DNA of 64,000 nt from Escherichia coli (GCF_044324875.1 NZ_CP172185.1), one strand, 5' to 3'; counted from the first letter of the stretch, positions 55,355 to 61,980 are shown. Notes: generated by a model from the sequence alone, not told the origin. Numbers and translations: made by a program.

Positions 55355-56980
55355 TTACACACACACTCCCCCCGTCGCCCGCAGCAATAAATCATTCTGG
55401 ATCTGCTCTGACAACCGTACGCCGCCGCGCGTATCTAACATCACCTGACACCACGCCTGCGCCATTGGCGGAGAGGCATATTTCAACATTTGCGCACCGC
55501 AGCCCAGCAGGAATAGCTGATGAGTAATCTCTCGCCCCAGTTCTTCAGCAGGCTTACGCAGCTGCTGCTGTAAACGACGAACCGCGCGATCAAAATAGCG
55601 ATCCTGCCCTTTCACTTCCACAAATGCTTCCGACAATAAGTCGTATACACCCGCTTGCTTATTGAGAACGCGCAGCACATCCAGGCACATAATATTGCCG
55701 GAACCTTCCCAAATACTGTTTACCGGCATCTCCCGGTAAAGCCGCGGCAGCTCGCTCTCCTCGCAATAACCAATGCCGCCCAGCACCTCCATCGCTTCGG
55801 CCACAAACGGCATACCTCGTTTGCAGATCACAAATTTTGCCGCAGGCGTAAATAAACGCGCCCACAGGGCTTCTTTGGCATCGGCACGCCGGTCCCACGC
55901 TCGCGCAAGACGAAACAGCAACGCCGTTTGCCCTTCAAGCTGAAGTGCCATGCGACTTAAGACATGACGCATAAGGGGCTGTTGGATCAATGGATTACCA
56001 AAAACATGGCGTTGATGTGCATGATAAATCGCCAGCGAAAATGCACGGCGCATCATGGCATGGCTACCCAGGGCGCAATCAAAACGCGTCATCCCCCCCA
56101 TTTTCAGGATCAGACGAATTCCTTCCCCTTCCTGCCCCAACAACCAGCCAATGGCATCCTGAAACTCCACTTCGCAGCTGGCGTTAGAGCGATTACCCAG
56201 CTTATCTTTCAGCCGCTCGAGGCGAATCGCGTTGCGTTGCCCGTCAGGCAAAAAGCGCGGCACAAAAAAGCAGGATAAACCGCCCGTAGTCTGCGCCAGC
56301 ACCAGATGCGCATCGCTTTGCGGCACCGAGAAAAACCATTTATGCCCCACCAGCCGATAAGAGCCATCTTCCAGACGCTCTGCGCGGGTGGTGTTGCTCA
56401 TGACATCGGAACCGCCCTGCTTTTCCGTCATTCCCATGCCAATCAACAAACCGCGTTTTTGCCCACCTGGCAATAAGTGAGAATCGTAGCGATCGCTCAA
56501 CAGCGGCGTGGTCCAGTCCTGAAACGGCGCGGGTAACATCTGTAACAGCAATGGCGTGGCGGCAAAGGTCATCGTTATCGGACATAACGACCCTGCCTCA
56601 ACCTGTGCGTGCAACATAAAACGCGCCGCGCGCGCCACAAATGCGCCGGAGCGAGCGTCTTCTTCCCAGGCAAGATTGTGCACCCGATTGGTACATAGCG
56701 CCTGCATCAGCAAGTGCCAGGCGGGGTGAAAACGCACATCGTCCAGATGGCGTCCTTGCGCATCGTAGCGCAATAATTCAGGCGGATTCACATTCGCCAG
56801 CCGCCCCAGTTCAAGGGATTCAGCCGTCCCTAACTGCTGACCAATACTAGCTAGAAAATCGCTATCCCAGCCAGCACCTTCACGCGTTACCGCTTCGCAG
56901 AGCGCGCCATCAGACAGGTATAAGTTGCTGTTATTTAATGGTATAGGTTGATTAAAAACGGTGTGAGTTTGCCAGTGCAC
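55355..56980 (-). CDS. aidB: Acyl-CoA dehydrogenase-family adaptive-response protein AidB
   Basis: 541-aa product starting at GTG 56978-56980 (HWQTHTVFNQPIPLNNSNLYLSDGALCEAV...), GGAGGGAG RBS upstream; ORF track begins 6 codons earlier. Confidence 0.93.
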   Translation of the reverse strand: MHWQTHTVFNQPIPLNNSNLYLSDGALCEAVTREGAGWDSDFLASIGQQLGTAESLELGRLANVNPPELLRYDAQGRHLDDVRFHPAWHLLMQALCTNRVHNLAWEEDARSGAFVARAARFMLHAQVEAGSLCPITMTFAATPLLLQMLPAPFQDWTTPLLSDRYDSHLLPGGQKRGLLIGMGMTEKQGGSDVMSNTTRAERLEDGSYRLVGHKWFFSVPQSDAHLVLAQTTGGLSCFFVPRFLPDGQRNAIRLERLKDKLGNRSNASCEVEFQDAIGWLLGQEGEGIRLILKMGGMTRFDCALGSHAMMRRAFSLAIYHAHQRHVFGNPLIQQPLMRHVLSRMALQLEGQTALLFRLARAWDRRADAKEALWARLFTPAAKFVICKRGMPFVAEAMEVLGGIGYCEESELPRLYREMPVNSIWEGSGNIMCLDVLRVLNKQAGVYDLLSEAFVEVKGQDRYFDRAVRRLQQQLRKPAEELGREITHQLFLLGCGAQMLKYASPPMAQAWCQVMLDTRGGVRLSEQIQNDLLLRATGGVCV

Positions 56981-57063
56981 TGTGTCTCCCTCCATCAATG
57001 GCAGTCACCCTTAGTATGGTCACTGCCATGGATTCCTGACAGAAAGAGATTGCTAAAACATTC

Positions 57064-58227
57064 TTATCCAGCAATGTAATGCGGAACGAAACGTGAGGTG
57101 TCTTTGGTGATCAGCGTGTTATCTTCACGGATCCCCATTCCGCACGCTTCATCATCGACAATCCAGCTACCGATGAGTGTGTAGCTATCGCCAAATCGCG
57201 GCAGAGGTTGAAGCGCCTGGTAGATCATCGGTTCATCGGCGTAATCACCATCAGCGTGGTCAACGACGTTATTCTGACCGTCGAAAATGGTGACGTTTCC
57301 GCCTTCGCGTGAGTAGATCGGTTTACGCACATAGCTTTCGCCAGCGGCAATCTGCGGTTTTTCGCCCTCAAACCAGGATGCAAGAAGGTTAGGATGACCA
57401 GGAAAGAAACGCCAAAGCAGCGGCATTAACCCTTTGTTGCTCAAGATACTTTTCCATAACGGCTCCACCCATTGCTCGCGACGCTTGCGCAGCAGCGGAC
57501 CGTTATCGTCACGCATCATCCACTCTAGCGGATACAGCTTAAATGCACGCTGGATGACATTATCATCAAGATCGGTCAGTACACCGCCGACGCCCAAACC
57601 GAGATCTTCAATGTAGATAAACCGCGACTCCTGCCCAGCCTGCTGGGCGCAGTCCTGCAAGTACAGCACGGTAGTCCTGTCTTCATCGGTGTCCTGACAG
57701 CAGCAAAAATAAAACGGTTCCCGACTGTAAAGCTCACTAAAGCGCGAAATCAGGCGTTCCTGAATGGCATTGTACTGATCGGCGTCACGTGGAATAACGC
57801 CGCTGCGCCGGGCATCTTCCAGCCACAGCCACTGGAAATAAGCCGATTCATACAACGAGGTTGGCGTATCGGCGTTGTACTCCAGCAGCTTCACCGGCGC
57901 ATTGCCACACCAGGCAAAATCCATCCGGCCATACAGCGAAGGATCGCGTGCGCGCCAGCTTTCGGCGATCACATCCCAGTACAACGGCGGGATCGCCAGT
58001 TGCGTCAGGATCTCTTCGTCTTTAACCGCGCGATCTACCACCTCAAGGCACATCTGATGCAGTTCCGCAGTCGGTTTTTCGATCTGCTCTTCAATCTGGC
58101 GCAGGGTAAAGCGGTAAGCCCGACTCTCATCCCAATAGATTTCATTGTCGATGATATGAAAGTCGAAACCGTTGTCAGCGGCGATCTGGTCCAGATCCCA
58201 CCGTACAGGAACGTTGTGTCTCAGCAT
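57064..58227 (-). CDS. yjfC: Glutathionylspermidine-synthase-like ATP-grasp protein YjfC
   Basis: 387-aa product MLRHNVPVRWDLDQIAADNGFDFHIIDNEIYWDESRAYRF...; last gene of yjfIJKLMC cluster. Confidence 0.92.
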   Translation of the reverse strand: MLRHNVPVRWDLDQIAADNGFDFHIIDNEIYWDESRAYRFTLRQIEEQIEKPTAELHQMCLEVVDRAVKDEEILTQLAIPPLYWDVIAESWRARDPSLYGRMDFAWCGNAPVKLLEYNADTPTSLYESAYFQWLWLEDARRSGVIPRDADQYNAIQERLISRFSELYSREPFYFCCCQDTDEDRTTVLYLQDCAQQAGQESRFIYIEDLGLGVGGVLTDLDDNVIQRAFKLYPLEWMMRDDNGPLLRKRREQWVEPLWKSILSNKGLMPLLWRFFPGHPNLLASWFEGEKPQIAAGESYVRKPIYSREGGNVTIFDGQNNVVDHADGDYADEPMIYQALQPLPRFGDSYTLIGSWIVDDEACGMGIREDNTLITKDTSRFVPHYIAG

Positions 58228-58229
58228 GA

Positions 58230-58868
58230 TTAGCCTCCCCAATGCCCACGGGCGCTGGAAGAACGACCATAGCCGCCGCGAGAAACGGTTGACGCTTTTT
58301 TGGTGGTAAAGCCGCCCGAAGAATAGGACTCTTTTTTGCCAGAACCGGAGCGCCAGGAGTAATCACCGGAAGTGTTGCGCCAGACGGGGCGCGAAGCAAA
58401 AGAGGAACCGCCGCTGTTATACACAAACTGCTCGTCGCGATCTTTACGAATAACCCGGCTTAACAAAAATCCAGAAACAACCGGGATCCAACTCTGTTCA
58501 ACGTTGTCGTAGTAACAATTTTCATACTTAGACTGACAATTCTGCTGAGTCATATTCTTTGGAACATCGGCATAAAACGCCGCTTTGGCGTTGTTCCAGC
58601 CATGAGCACAGATATCTGAATTATTACCGTCATCAATACAATCCTGCACAGTCGAGTAAAACGTTCCGTCGCCGTCGTTATCGACATCGCCACTATCGCC
58701 ACAACCTTTCAATACGAAAAAAGCGGCACCGCCCATTAGCGCCAACGTTAAGTATTTTTGTGCGTAACGATTGCGACGCGGTTCAAAAGGATTATTCGGT
58801 CTACCAATGCGACTGATCGCTCCGTGACCAATTTTACTGTTATTTCTTGATTTGCGTTTTCTGGCCAT
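58230..58868 (-). CDS. yjfM: DUF1190 protein YjfM
   Basis: 212-aa ORF MARKRKSRNNSKIGHGAISRIGRPNNPFEPRRNRYAQKYLTLALMGGAAFFVLKGC... (membrane anchor, Cys/Gly/Ser-rich tail). Confidence 0.9.
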   Translation of the reverse strand: MARKRKSRNNSKIGHGAISRIGRPNNPFEPRRNRYAQKYLTLALMGGAAFFVLKGCGDSGDVDNDGDGTFYSTVQDCIDDGNNSDICAHGWNNAKAAFYADVPKNMTQQNCQSKYENCYYDNVEQSWIPVVSGFLLSRVIRKDRDEQFVYNSGGSSFASRPVWRNTSGDYSWRSGSGKKESYSSGGFTTKKASTVSRGGYGRSSSARGHWGG

Positions 58869-58877
58869 GATCGTCCA

Positions 58878-59276
58878 TTACCATGTCATACAAGCTGCGT
58901 TAAAAATACCGCCAGCCAGTGCGGCGGTTCCCATAAACATTCCTGCTGCGGTATTGTGATTAATAATTTTTTCGCTTAATGCGGGCATATAAAGTCTGAC
59001 GCCAGCAAAAACGAGTAACTGAATCACCAGTGCGATCCCGCCCCAGGCGAAATAGTCTGGAATACTCACCGCATTGATTGCCGCACTGGATAAGGGGATC
59101 ACGTAACCCAACAATGTACCGCTGAACGCCAGTGACGCCGCGGTATTATTGTTTTTGATTAACTGCCATTCGTTGTGCGGTGTAATTTTTGAATAGATAA
59201 ACAGAAAAATAATCACCATAGCCACGCCAATAAAAAAATAGGCACTAAAGGCAAGAAGAGAATCCAGTATATGCAT
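58878..59276 (-). CDS. yjfL: DUF350 inner-membrane protein YjfL
   Basis: 132-aa product MHILDSLLAFSAYFFIGVAMVIIFLFIYSKITPHNEWQLIKNN... from ATG 59274-59276; ORF track extends 27 codons upstream. Confidence 0.9.
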   Translation of the reverse strand: MHILDSLLAFSAYFFIGVAMVIIFLFIYSKITPHNEWQLIKNNNTAASLAFSGTLLGYVIPLSSAAINAVSIPDYFAWGGIALVIQLLVFAGVRLYMPALSEKIINHNTAAGMFMGTAALAGGIFNAACMTW

Positions 59277-59293
59277 TGTAAACGTCCTTGTAA

Positions 59294-59953
59294 TTAACCA
59301 ATAATATGAAGTGATGTCAGCGGGATATCGACACCCAACGCGCGCGAAAATAACCACTCTGGCTCGCCGAGATCGTTAAAAGATTCCTCACCATTTAGCA
59401 GCAAATATTCGTAAGTATCTTCGGTTACTTGCCGTTGGTAGCCCATGGTAAAATTATGTACTTCCCATTTGGCATGGTTTTGATTTTCTACTTTTTCCAG
59501 CATGTAGACGGGTTCGATATTTCCCGGTTCTTCGCTGTTAAAAAATCGCTGCCAGCGTTTTTCCTGCCAGTTTAAGGTCATTGCCCCCATCGCTTTGGCA
59601 TTGATCGTCTCGCGCCAGTGACTCTCTTTACTGATACCGTAGCTCTCTTCATAGACAAAGAGCTTGATATCATCAATGTTATCAATATTTTCGCCGCCGG
59701 TGGTATTGATTTGCAGAAACTCATCGCCTGAAGTGTAGTAGCGGAAAATCTGGCTACCGCCGCCCAGATCGATGTGACTGACAGCGGCTACCGTAAATTC
59801 CTCACCCGGCAGCGCAATCAGCAATTCATCTTCCAGCAAACGAAACGCTAACGTGTCGAGCGTAAAGCCACTATTGAGATGAAGTCCCAGCGGACCGCGA
59901 GCGATAGCAGGCTTATTATCCTTGCCAAACAGACGCTGGAAAAAACCAGACAT
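59294..59953 (-). CDS. yjfK: DUF2491 protein YjfK
   Basis: 219-aa ORF MSGFFQRLFGKDNKPAIARGPLGLHLNSGFTLDTLAFRL... Confidence 0.9.
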   Translation of the reverse strand: MSGFFQRLFGKDNKPAIARGPLGLHLNSGFTLDTLAFRLLEDELLIALPGEEFTVAAVSHIDLGGGSQIFRYYTSGDEFLQINTTGGENIDNIDDIKLFVYEESYGISKESHWRETINAKAMGAMTLNWQEKRWQRFFNSEEPGNIEPVYMLEKVENQNHAKWEVHNFTMGYQRQVTEDTYEYLLLNGEESFNDLGEPEWLFSRALGVDIPLTSLHIIG

Positions 59954-60003
59954 ATTTTATCCTTAAAATAGTTGCCAGCCTTGCAGTGAGGCTGGCAAAA
60001 AAA

Positions 60004-60702
60004 TTACTCGCCCTGTTGGCGTTGCAGTCTTGCTAATACATCCTGGGCGCTACTTTTATTGCTACCGCCTATTCCGGCTTCCGCCAGCTTTTCATCAAGA
60101 TCGCGACCGTCTGCGACTTTTTCCAACTGTGCAGCAGCATCCAGGCGAGCCTGACGTTCGGCCTGACGCGTTTGCAGGCGTTTTAAGGATTCTGCCGCTG
60201 TCGAAACGCTGGAAGATGCGCCAACGGTAGAGGTCGTTACAGCCTGTTGTGCACGCTGCATGGCTTCAGTAGCTTTAACGACTTCCATTTGCTGCTCAAA
60301 CTGAGCGATACGCTGCGCTGTCGCTGTAACTGCTTTTTCCACGCCATCACGAGAGACTTCCAGATTCGACAACACTTGCTCTTCAGCGGTAATGAGATTC
60401 TCAAGGCGCGCGATTTCTTCAGCAACTTCGTTAATCAACGACGGATTAACGTTCTTGCTTAACGCTTCCAGCGCACGGGCTTCCAGACTGGCTTTGCGCT
60501 CACGTAAATCTTTCAGCTTATCGTGACTTAATTTCACCCGCGCCAGCAGATCAACGCGAGATTTTCCGGCTTTATCGAGTTCAGCTTTAGCGTCACGAAT
60601 ATGCTGTTCCAGCATGCGCACGCCCTGGGTTTCTTCAATGGATTCTTCCGCCTGAGAGATAAACGATTTCCCCAGCGTAAATAAACTTTTTAAAATTCCC
60701 AT
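60004..60702 (-). CDS. yjfJ: PspA/IM30 (ESCRT-III-like) family protein YjfJ
   Basis: 232-aa coiled-coil ORF MGILKSLFTLGKSFISQAEESIEETQGVRMLEQHIRDAKAELDKAGK... Confidence 0.92.
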   Translation of the reverse strand: MGILKSLFTLGKSFISQAEESIEETQGVRMLEQHIRDAKAELDKAGKSRVDLLARVKLSHDKLKDLRERKASLEARALEALSKNVNPSLINEVAEEIARLENLITAEEQVLSNLEVSRDGVEKAVTATAQRIAQFEQQMEVVKATEAMQRAQQAVTTSTVGASSSVSTAAESLKRLQTRQAERQARLDAAAQLEKVADGRDLDEKLAEAGIGGSNKSSAQDVLARLQRQQGE

Positions 60703-60720
60703 AAATACCCGTCCTTGTAA

Positions 60721-61122
60721 TTAGTGTGAATATTCTTCTGTAATTTCAGCCAGATCCAATGCGTTATCTACCAGCGAGGTTATCTCAAGCAGGATATCTT
60801 CAAGAGAAGATTTAAGCGATAACGCACCGAAAACAATGTAATACTCTTCATGTTGCACGCTGGAGATCCCTACCGATGACAACGGCATCATCTTCTGATT
60901 TCTTAATAAGAAGGTATTAAATTCATCTGGATTGCTGATACTACTTACCGGACAAATAAAGGTTTCGATAATCATTTGGCGGGAAGTAAATAGAATATTG
61001 ATTTGCAAATCGCCATAATCATTCATTTTAATAATTAATGCGTTCTCGCCATTTGTTACATCAATATTTTGTTCAGGTACAGTTTGCAGCGCCGTCGCCA
61101 GCGCCAACGGATTCCATGTCAT
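60721..61122 (-). CDS. yjfI: DUF2170 protein YjfI
   Basis: 133-aa ORF MTWNPLALATALQTVPEQNIDVTNGENALIIKMNDYGDLQINILFTS... Confidence 0.9.
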   Translation of the reverse strand: MTWNPLALATALQTVPEQNIDVTNGENALIIKMNDYGDLQINILFTSRQMIIETFICPVSSISNPDEFNTFLLRNQKMMPLSSVGISSVQHEEYYIVFGALSLKSSLEDILLEITSLVDNALDLAEITEEYSH

Positions 61123-61201
61123 ATATTATTCCATATAAATTAAGTTTAAATATTAATAAAATGAATATTTGCAGTACGTAATTATCTTACCAGCTATAGA
61201 C

Positions 61202-61228
61202 AAAAAAAAACCATCCAAATCTGGATGG
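61202..61228 (-). terminator. Rho-independent terminator downstream of rnr-rlmB
   Basis: Hairpin CCATCCA-AATC-TGGATGG with A9 on plus strand (T9 after hairpin on minus strand), 20 bp after rlmB stop. Confidence 0.75.
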
Positions 61229-61248
61229 CTTTTCAAAATTCAGAGGAA

Positions 61249-61980
61249 CTAGCTGCGCTGTCGCACCGCTTCAAATAAGCAAATCCCTGTCGCCACAGAA
61301 ACGTTCAGGGAAGAAACGCTTCCTGCCATTGGGATGCTGATCAACTCGTCGCAATGTTCACGAGTCAGGCGACGCATACCTTCACCTTCCGCGCCCATCA
61401 CCAGTGCCAGCCGTCCGGTCATTTTGCTCTGATAAAGTGTATGATCCGCCTCACCTGCCGTACCGACGATCCAGATATTCTCTTCCTGCAACATACGCAT
61501 GGTGCGCGCAAGGTTAGTCACCCGAATCAGCGGAACGCTTTCTGCCGCGCCGCAGGCTACTTTTTTCGCCGTGGCGTTGAGCTGTGCGGAGCGATCTTTC
61601 GGCACAATCACCGCATGAACACCTGCGGCGTCCGCGCTACGCAGGCACGCGCCGAGGTTGTGCGGATCGGTTACGCCGTCGAGGATCAGCAGGAACGGTT
61701 GATCGAGCGAAGCGATCAGATCCGGCAGATCGTTTTCCTGATACTGACGTCCTGGCTTCACACGGGCAATAATGCCCTGATGCACGGCACCGTCGCTTTT
61801 CTCGTCGAGATACTGACGGTTCGCCAACTGGATAACCACGCCCTGGGACTCAAGGGCGTGAATCAGCGGTAACAGACGTTTATCTTCACGGCCTTTTAAA
61901 ATAAAGACTTCCTGAAAACGTTCAGGGGCGCGCTCCAGCAGGGCCTGCACTGCGTGGATGCCGTAAATCATTTCGCTCAT
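61249..61980 (-). CDS. rlmB: 23S rRNA (guanosine2251-2'-O)-methyltransferase (SpoU/TrmH family)
   Basis: 243-aa [51 protein letters not shown]... Confidence 0.96.

Follow-up and report, generated by a model that had tools for sequence, protein, structure and literature searches.

Positions 57,064 to 61,122 of a 64,000-nucleotide stretch of Escherichia coli chromosome (NZ_CP172185.1), referred to below as the window, carry six minus-strand open reading frames (ORFs), gene for gene as RefSeq annotates them in near-identical E. coli chromosomes. The region is the chromosomal locus b4181-b4186 (yjfIJKLMC), which has already been annotated and partly characterised. We propose that it is probably a conserved gammaproteobacterial inner-membrane maintenance operon built from two coupled modules. 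In the first, YjfJ would probably polymerise on the cytoplasmic face of the stressed inner membrane and seal or stabilise it, while YjfI, a putative CesT-like dimeric chaperone, would bind YjfJ and thereby keep it soluble or set its level. In the second, cytoplasmic YjfC would turn the C-terminal carboxylate of a peptide into an acyl-phosphate and join spermidine to it. Its partners would be YjfL, predicted to have four transmembrane segments, the lipoprotein YjfM of the envelope and YjfK, a soluble beta-protein; together they would produce a polycationic peptide-polyamine conjugate at the membrane or position one there. Ancestrally, this module may have been coupled to a ligand-gated K+ channel. 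That both modules act in one pathway we infer, as we do the target of the ligase in vivo.

Gene content and identity of the locus

The six genes, in order of transcription, are:

60721-61122, minus strand: yjfI, 133 aa (stop codon counted in the coordinates), DUF2170 protein
60004-60702, minus strand: yjfJ, 232 aa (stop codon counted), PspA/IM30 (bacterial ESCRT-III) family protein
59294-59953, minus strand: yjfK, 219 aa (stop codon counted), DUF2491 protein, soluble and all-beta
58878-59276, minus strand: yjfL, 132 aa (ATG at 59276), DUF350 integral inner-membrane protein
58230-58868, minus strand: yjfM, 212 aa (stop codon counted), DUF1190 protein
57064-58227, minus strand: yjfC, 387 aa (ATG at 58227), stand-alone GspS-like ATP-grasp amide ligase

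All six products score far above the curated Pfam gathering cut-offs: YjfI as DUF2170 (PF09938, 149.8 bits), YjfJ as PspA_IM30 (PF04012, 196.7 bits), YjfK as DUF2491 (PF10679, 239 bits), YjfL as DUF350 (PF03994, 116.3 bits), YjfM as DUF1190 (65.9 bits) and YjfC as GSP_synth (PF03738, 496.2 bits). From yjfI to yjfC the spacers measure 18, 50, 17, 9 and 2 bp, and the cluster is flanked by the rlmB terminator upstream and by aidB downstream. Hydropathy and sequence reveal neither a signal peptide nor a hydrophobic segment of transmembrane grade in YjfI, YjfJ, YjfK or YjfC, which indicates that these four proteins are cytoplasmic. An Rfam search of the region gave no match.

An earlier, sequence-only reading of the window had described six same-strand genes of these families, in this order and tightly spaced, all of which the ORF listing, RefSeq and Pfam bear out; its series of spacers holds for the last four values, the first being 18 rather than 19 bp. 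Its term "DUF membrane proteins" fits YjfL and YjfM only, as the other four products have no membrane segment. The suggestion of a conserved envelope-stress or ligation module is upheld by the gene identities, the domain families and a gene-neighbourhood order that recurs across Enterobacterales.

Mechanical ORF calling gave yjfC 392 aa from a TTG (57064-58242), running over the yjfM stop, and yjfL 159 aa from a GTG (58878-59357), running into yjfK. For these two genes the annotated ATG codons, at 58227 and 59276, agree with the family alignments and with the conserved 2-nt and 17-nt spacers.

The locus shares its position, gene order, neighbours (rlmB and aidB) and spacers with yjfIJKLMC of E. 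coli K-12, and the proteins are 95.8-100% identical. The differences are allelic only and lie in the loop bases of a hairpin in the yjfJ-yjfK spacer and in YjfM (95.8% identity); the hairpin stem and a run of nine T residues (T9) upstream of yjfI are identical. A 5.2-kb query (window positions 56500-61700) finds a match in 5425 of the 5426 complete E. coli genomes and is at least 80% covered in 5326. Identity over this query reaches at least 99% in only 8 of the 5425 matching genomes and lies at 95-99% in 5404, which suggests that the source strain has a less common allele of the region.

Conservation and loss of a channel gene

A scan of species-representative genome contigs with a YjfK alignment returned 20 loci, all from Enterobacterales except one 237-bp contig labelled Bacillus, the peptide patterns of the scan being too specific to reach further; more distant contexts were obtained through exact-protein look-ups. 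Complete Enterobacterales loci share the order rlmB-yjfIJ-(X)-KLMC-aidB, in which X is an additional gene found in some of them. Hahella and metagenomes have the gene set as well, with proteins 25-50% identical. This recurrence of order and gene set across Enterobacterales, Hahella and metagenomes indicates that the arrangement did not arise by chance.

Gene X occurs between yjfJ and yjfK, comprises 355-356 codons (as read at the loci of E. coli and Buttiauxella; elsewhere inferred from a gap of ~1.07 kb) and encodes an Ion_trans_2 K+-channel domain. In the seven-gene forms its start overlaps the yjfJ stop and its end overlaps the yjfK start (L004:3070-4140, L012:6910-7977). It is present in Citrobacter, Buttiauxella, Atlantibacter, Serratia microhaemolytica, one Enterobacter and one strain labelled E. 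coli. The order DUF2170-PspA-Ion_trans_2-DUF2491-DUF350-DUF1190-GSP_synth is also found in Hahella sp. KA22, and the seven-gene operon lies as well on a metagenome contig, with proteins 25-53% identical. The window has the six-gene form, in which the 50-bp spacer at 59954-60003 stands between yjfJ and yjfK; a channel-less six-gene form is also found on another, distant metagenome contig. Based on the occurrence of the seven-gene operon across Enterobacterales, Hahella and a metagenome, the six-gene form of the window is most likely a derivative of a seven-gene gammaproteobacterial operon that has lost its channel.

This operon corresponds to the "third group" CesT/Tir-PspA operon of Ravi et al. 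2024 (PMC11237479), with which the window shares DUF2170, PspA, DUF2491, DUF350, DUF1190 and the GspS-like enzyme. The K+ channel of the archetype, which has an intracellular domain for ligand sensing, is missing from the window, where the other six of the seven genes are present.

In the channel-bearing locus from the strain labelled E. coli (L004), identity to the window proteins is only 80% for YjfI and 93% for YjfJ, suggesting a divergent haplotype.

Genomic position also bears on whether the cluster could serve in anti-phage defence or be a mobile accessory system of another kind, which we consider the most remote of the alternatives. One metagenome homologue adjoins SIR2/TIR and nSTAND genes, a single case that may be coincidence, and many phages carry GspS-like genes with or without an adjoining DUF1190 gene. 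Against such a role, the chromosomal site of the cluster is fixed: in 5425 of 5426 E. coli genomes it lies between housekeeping genes. No mobility genes accompany it, and PADLOC gave nothing beyond weak matches to the coiled coil of YjfJ (E 5e-4 and 2e-3).

The YjfI-YjfJ module

YjfI is homologous to the Pseudomonas aeruginosa protein BacA, aligning to its crystal structure (8q8o) over residues 3-128 with an E-value of 5.6e-17. BacA has a CesT-like fold (PMC10948618, PMC11237479), a BacA-BacB complex is predicted at high confidence by AlphaFold (PMC13092808), and deletion of bacA leads to higher BacB abundance (PMC10948618, PMC13092808). By analogy with this pair, YjfI would be a chaperone of YjfJ. 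In the P. aeruginosa bac cluster the DUF2170 gene (BacA/PA3732) lies directly upstream of the PspA_IM30 gene (BacB/PA3731), as in yjfIJ. The bac cluster lacks ligase, DUF1190 and DUF350 genes, and its phenotypes concern biofilm, rhamnolipid and swarming.

YjfJ matches the PspA_IM30 profile over its full length (residues 2-232 against profile positions 1-220 of 220; cut-off 33.9 bits) and is soluble or peripheral, with a maximum 19-residue hydropathy of 0.58 and no transmembrane segment. Published support for ring or rod formation and membrane remodelling by YjfJ consists of homology modelling (PMC12492005). Membrane sealing by YjfJ under the control of YjfI is the best-supported role for this module, a view based on the families of the two proteins and on the analogy with BacA/BacB.

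The classical Psp system (pspF-pspABCDE) shares only a PspA/IM30-family effector with the yjf locus. No PspB, PspC or PspF gene is found near yjfJ, which has rlmB and aidB as its neighbours and a CesT-like partner instead.

YjfK and YjfL

YjfL is small and very hydrophobic, with Kyte-Doolittle 19-residue means of up to 2.59. It is 72-93% identical across intact enterobacterial loci outside Escherichia, in every one of which its identity exceeds that of YjfI, YjfK and YjfM.

A published proposal assigns envelope pores to the locus (PMC12492005): YjfJ would form a ring pore, YjfK a primitive outer-membrane porin and YjfL a hexameric channel, and these pores would raise membrane protein crowding or export misfolded proteins. 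This we regard as very improbable. We found neither a signal peptide nor structural similarity to outer-membrane barrels in YjfK; both YjfK and YjfI are cytoplasmic by sequence, so that the porin assignment, like that of YjfI as a periplasmic lipoprotein in the same paper, does not fit them.

The YjfC ligase

YjfC matches the crystal structures 7uk6 and 7uk7 in the PDB ("acid-amine ligase YjfC") with an E-value of 6.5e-272, and its paralogue YgiC matches 7uk8 and 7uka; RefSeq names both K-12 products peptide--spermidine ligase, in line with Pederick 2023. The synthetase domains of GspS and of trypanothione synthetase are homologues of YjfC. GspS activates the glycine carboxylate of glutathione. 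The bifunctional enzyme Gss has the same ATP-grasp synthetase fold and likewise uses spermidine in an amide ligation through an acyl-phosphate, but it is 619 aa long with an N-terminal amidase, whereas YjfC, at 387 aa, has no amidase domain. YjfC aligns to Gss residues 253-626 only and scores 165.9 on the NCBIfam Gss equivalog, for which the cut-off is 882.

YjfC ligates spermidine to peptides in vitro (Pederick 2023, as cited in PMC11762307 and PMC12568646) and is described as having no glutathionylspermidine synthetase activity (Sui 2012, as cited in PMC12506659). Taken together, ygiBC and yjfMC have been tied to the growth defect of a tolC mutant in minimal glucose (Dhamdhere and Zgurskaya 2010, as cited in bioRxiv 10.1101/2021.12.13.472529).

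The DUF1190 lipoprotein and its coupling to the ligase

YjfM begins with a basic N-terminal extension, followed by a signal/anchor segment with a lipobox-like Cys56 (in an atypical L-K-G-C lipobox) and an acidic four-cysteine domain. Its C-terminal half contains a conserved hydrophobic P/G motif (residues 127-140) and then a basic low-complexity tail that ends ...SRGGYGRSSSARGHWGG, the last four residues being HWGG. In an alignment of 108 DUF1190 sequences the lipobox Cys is present in 103, C77, C87 and C111 in all 108, C118 in 107, P129 in 107 and G133 in 106. Near the C-terminus is a near-invariant SRGGFG (R197 in 104, G199 in 105, F200 in 101 and G201 in 107), which typically continues ...ARxSWGG. 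YjfM thus has the full set of family features, namely a lipobox-type N-terminus, four cysteines, the P/G motif and an SRGGFG...WGG end. An exhaustive profile-free search yielded 155 DUF1190 cluster representatives, and among the 114 of at least 150 aa, on which C-termini were scored, 92 (81%) end in Gly-Gly and 15 in Gly-Ser.

Outside the yjf locus of Enterobacterales we compared 13 independent contexts, and in 12 of them DUF1190 lies directly upstream of GSP_synth, 1-13 nt apart or slightly overlapping; in the yjf locus itself, yjfC starts 2 nt past the yjfM stop. The contexts include stand-alone pairs (Terasakiella and ygiBC), triads in which the DUF350-DUF1190-ligase core is kept together, a phage-like contig and the jumbo phage phiRSL1. 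In phiRSL1 (L030:2095-3622), ORF051 encodes a DUF1190-like lipoprotein ending ...ASAGG and stops one nucleotide before gsp (ORF052). On the phage-like metagenome contig (L026:5962-7759), the gene for a DUF1190-like lipoprotein with a GG end is directly upstream of the ligase. The exception among the 13 is another phage-like contig (L028:2302-2814), which has DUF1190 alone.

The E. coli tolC-ygiB-ygiC locus carries a paralogous, tightly adjacent pair of DUF1190 lipoprotein and ligase. YgiC is 51% identical to YjfC, and YgiB, like YjfM, ends in GG (...RSMGG). This locus lacks PspA, DUF2170, DUF2491 and DUF350 genes and is tolC-linked and Cpx-regulated (bioRxiv 10.1101/2021.12.13.472529).

Given the conserved Gly-Gly end and the ligation of spermidine to peptide carboxylates, the neighbouring lipoprotein is an obvious candidate substrate, and the C-terminal glycine of YjfM or YgiB could be what YjfC or YgiC modifies. 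We hold this to be doubtful. The hydrophobic motif in the middle of DUF1190 proteins, considered as a membrane span that would bring the tail into the cytoplasm, is non-canonical, with a hydropathy mean of 1.84 over 13 residues and of only 0.84 over 19. A motif this short leaves the YjfM tail most simply in the periplasm and the ligase in the cytoplasm, which counts against the tail as substrate. So does the failure of the expectation that DUF1190 members without a GG end would lack the ligase, as all three examined keep it adjacent. In an AlphaFold2 model of a chimera that joins YjfC to the last 22 YjfM residues through a 30-residue Gly/Ser linker, built from 13 paired rows and 32 unpaired homologues, pLDDT was about 90 for the enzyme and 29-35 for linker and tail, with no docking of the tail seen; pLDDT is the only readout here, and the negative is not decisive. 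The charges of YjfM are asymmetric (13 basic and 5 acidic residues in the tail, 3 basic and 13 acidic in the cysteine domain), which is suggestive only.

Some of the same observations favour a different product. YjfC might make a soluble small peptide-polyamine conjugate, like glutathionylspermidine, for polyamine or redox homeostasis or for export; YjfL, YjfM and YjfK would then be not protein substrates but a transporter, a periplasmic binder and an accessory enzyme. The homology of YjfC to GspS and trypanothione synthetase domains and its activity on peptides in vitro are in keeping with this, as are the periplasmic placement of the YjfM tail, its undocked state in the chimera and the three non-GG DUF1190 members beside a ligase. 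Set against these points, no peptide-synthesis genes accompany the ligase, the enzyme is reported (as relayed by the citing paper) to have no glutathionylspermidine synthetase activity, and the adjacency of DUF1190 together with its near-invariant tail motif is left unexplained. Overall we consider a soluble conjugate possible but rather improbable.

If the lipoprotein tail were the substrate, DUF1190 and the GspS-like ligase would together be a two-gene system devoted to attaching spermidine to the C-terminus of an envelope protein made on the ribosome. Bacteria and phages would then have a counterpart to RimK-type C-terminal modification or to UBL-spermidine conjugation, and the resulting polycationic tail would act at the membrane beside YjfL and the PspA-like YjfJ.

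YjfM-YjfC fusions of 548-601 aa, considered as Rosetta-stone evidence, are really frameshifted yjfM alleles that enter the yjfC frame. Frameshifts in the low-complexity 3' part of yjfM are common in E. coli (clusters P0004, P0011 and P0378; cluster sizes of 424, 97 and 130 members, for example); the window copy is intact. GspS-like ligase genes also occur in jumbo and T4-like phages, with 141 phage records matched. At one locus (L036:2938-5749) a gene for arginase, an enzyme of polyamine precursor metabolism, lies divergently beside a DUF1190-ligase pair, a single case that may be coincidence.

Transcription and the heat response

Four features of the noncoding DNA bear on expression of the genes:

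61205-61234, minus strand: rlmB intrinsic terminator hairpin with a 13-bp stem, from the terminator scan; upstream boundary of the cluster, identical in K-12
61202-61210, minus strand: T9 run at -88 to -80 from the yjfI ATG, forming the U-tract of the rlmB terminator; identical in K-12
61123-61201, minus strand: AT-rich yjfI leader/promoter region, 19% G+C, holding the reported RpoD site
59972-59998, minus strand: G+C-rich hairpin in the yjfJ-yjfK spacer with a 10-bp stem followed by CUAUUUU, from the terminator scan

The sequence-only reading had placed the cluster after the rlmB terminator, which the hairpin at 61234-61205 confirms, and had called the tract at 61123-61200 AT-rich and promoter-like. 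The G+C content of this tract is indeed 19%, compared with 51% for the whole window, and a binding site for RpoD holoenzyme, TTAATA-17-TGGAAT, has been reported upstream of yjfI (PMC3946193) and is visible in the window sequence. Our promoter scan gave no excess of sigma-70-like sites over chance (5 found, 5.9 expected), so "promoter-like" rests on the AT-richness and on the published binding of RNA polymerase in this spacer. A search of the window for the sigma-54 consensus found 281 matches, below the roughly 331 expected by chance; none among the matches listed lies upstream of yjfI, and none there is consensus-like on reading the sequence.

Strains evolved at 45 C show strong upregulation of the "YjfJ iModulon", which comprises yjfIJKL (PMC12492005), and plasmid expression of yjfIJKL raises the growth rate 1.21-fold at 42 C (PMC11472167). 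In heat-evolved mutL strains the loss of one nucleotide "80 bp upstream of yjfI" switches on yjfIJKL (PMC12492005). Judged by position, this deletion would fall on the last base of the T9 run (61210-61202). Because the run is the U-tract of the rlmB terminator, read-through from nsrR-rnr-rlmB is an alternative to a promoter mutation, and the heat mutation may act in this way beside any change to a promoter.

The hairpin in the yjfJ-yjfK spacer has a predicted folding energy of -17.1 kcal/mol (z = -3.0), and between the window and K-12 its stem is the same and the loop alone differs. In Escherichia the 50-bp spacer with this hairpin occupies the site of the channel gene of other lineages. The hairpin is absent from Kosakonia and Phytobacter, in which the spacer is 8-18 bp, and from the seven-gene forms. 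It is possibly a partial terminator or an RNA-stabilising element, and it may attenuate transcription between yjfIJ and yjfKLMC. Attenuation would fit both the published listings of yjfIJ as a unit and the absence of yjfMC from the iModulon. The inclusion of yjfK and yjfL in the iModulon implies transcription past the hairpin to yjfL or beyond.

The same features raise the question of whether there are two units, yjfIJ being the tail of the nsrR-rnr-rlmB transcript and yjfKLMC a separate, independently controlled polyamine-conjugation operon whose adjacency is incidental. A published listing does give the unit nsrR-rnr-rlmB-yjfIJ (PMC3946193), the BacA paper likewise names a yjfIJ operon, a stable hairpin followed by CUAUUUU occupies the 50-bp spacer, and both halves exist independently elsewhere. 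We nevertheless find this arrangement unlikely: the combined order, with overlapping junctions, is kept from Enterobacterales to Hahella, a change upstream of yjfI raises yjfI, yjfJ, yjfK and yjfL together (PMC12492005), and no sigma-70-like site above chance precedes yjfK.

Evidence against a single coupled operon

Several observations weigh against our reading of yjfIJKLMC as one inner-membrane maintenance operon. A phmmer search gave no match between YjfJ and solved PspA or Vipp1 chains at E <= 0.01, so that its family assignment rests on the Pfam profile. Each module is found alone elsewhere, as bacAB in Pseudomonas, ygiBC in E. coli and phage-borne pairs; a terminator-like hairpin separates the two gene halves in the window; and yjfMC is outside the iModulon that holds yjfIJKL. 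The channel gene, annotated as "potassium channel family protein", is kept in 19 of 5426 complete E. coli genomes and missing from 5407, a sign of relaxed selection, and the yjfM frameshift alleles suggest either relaxed selection or indel-prone sequence in this species. Since the gene lost in E. coli lay between the two modules, the E. coli version may be a partly relaxed system.

Context and remaining observations

The genes, the type of operon, the ligase and the heat iModulon were already known, and the present work is the re-identification of an annotated locus rather than a discovery. What it adds is the channel-loss derivation, the adjacency of DUF1190 and the ligase, and the Gly-Gly end statistics. 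The description of the cluster as functionally unassigned in the sequence-only reading is accurate insofar as no defined function has been published for the operon, but it overlooks the structures and name of YjfC and the heat benefit of yjfIJKL. The locus links a membrane-repair protein of bacterial ESCRT-III type to polyamine conjugation, and it is among the few multi-gene operons of E. coli K-12 whose role is only partly known, yet whose effect on heat tolerance is measurable. The reduction of a seven-gene, channel-bearing operon to the E. coli form, the autonomous lipoprotein-ligase pair (also present in jumbo phages) and the conserved Gly-Gly tail all offer handles for experiments.

Two enterobacterial loci depart from the intact arrangement. 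At the Enterobacter sp. EA-1 locus (L021), the matches to several genes, rlmB among them, are broken, perhaps owing to sequence quality. Salmonella enterica subsp. diarizonae CCUG 30040T (L022:6399-7538) has no yjfJ match and retains only fragments of yjfK, yjfM and yjfC between yjfI and aidB, indicating that the operon has decayed there.

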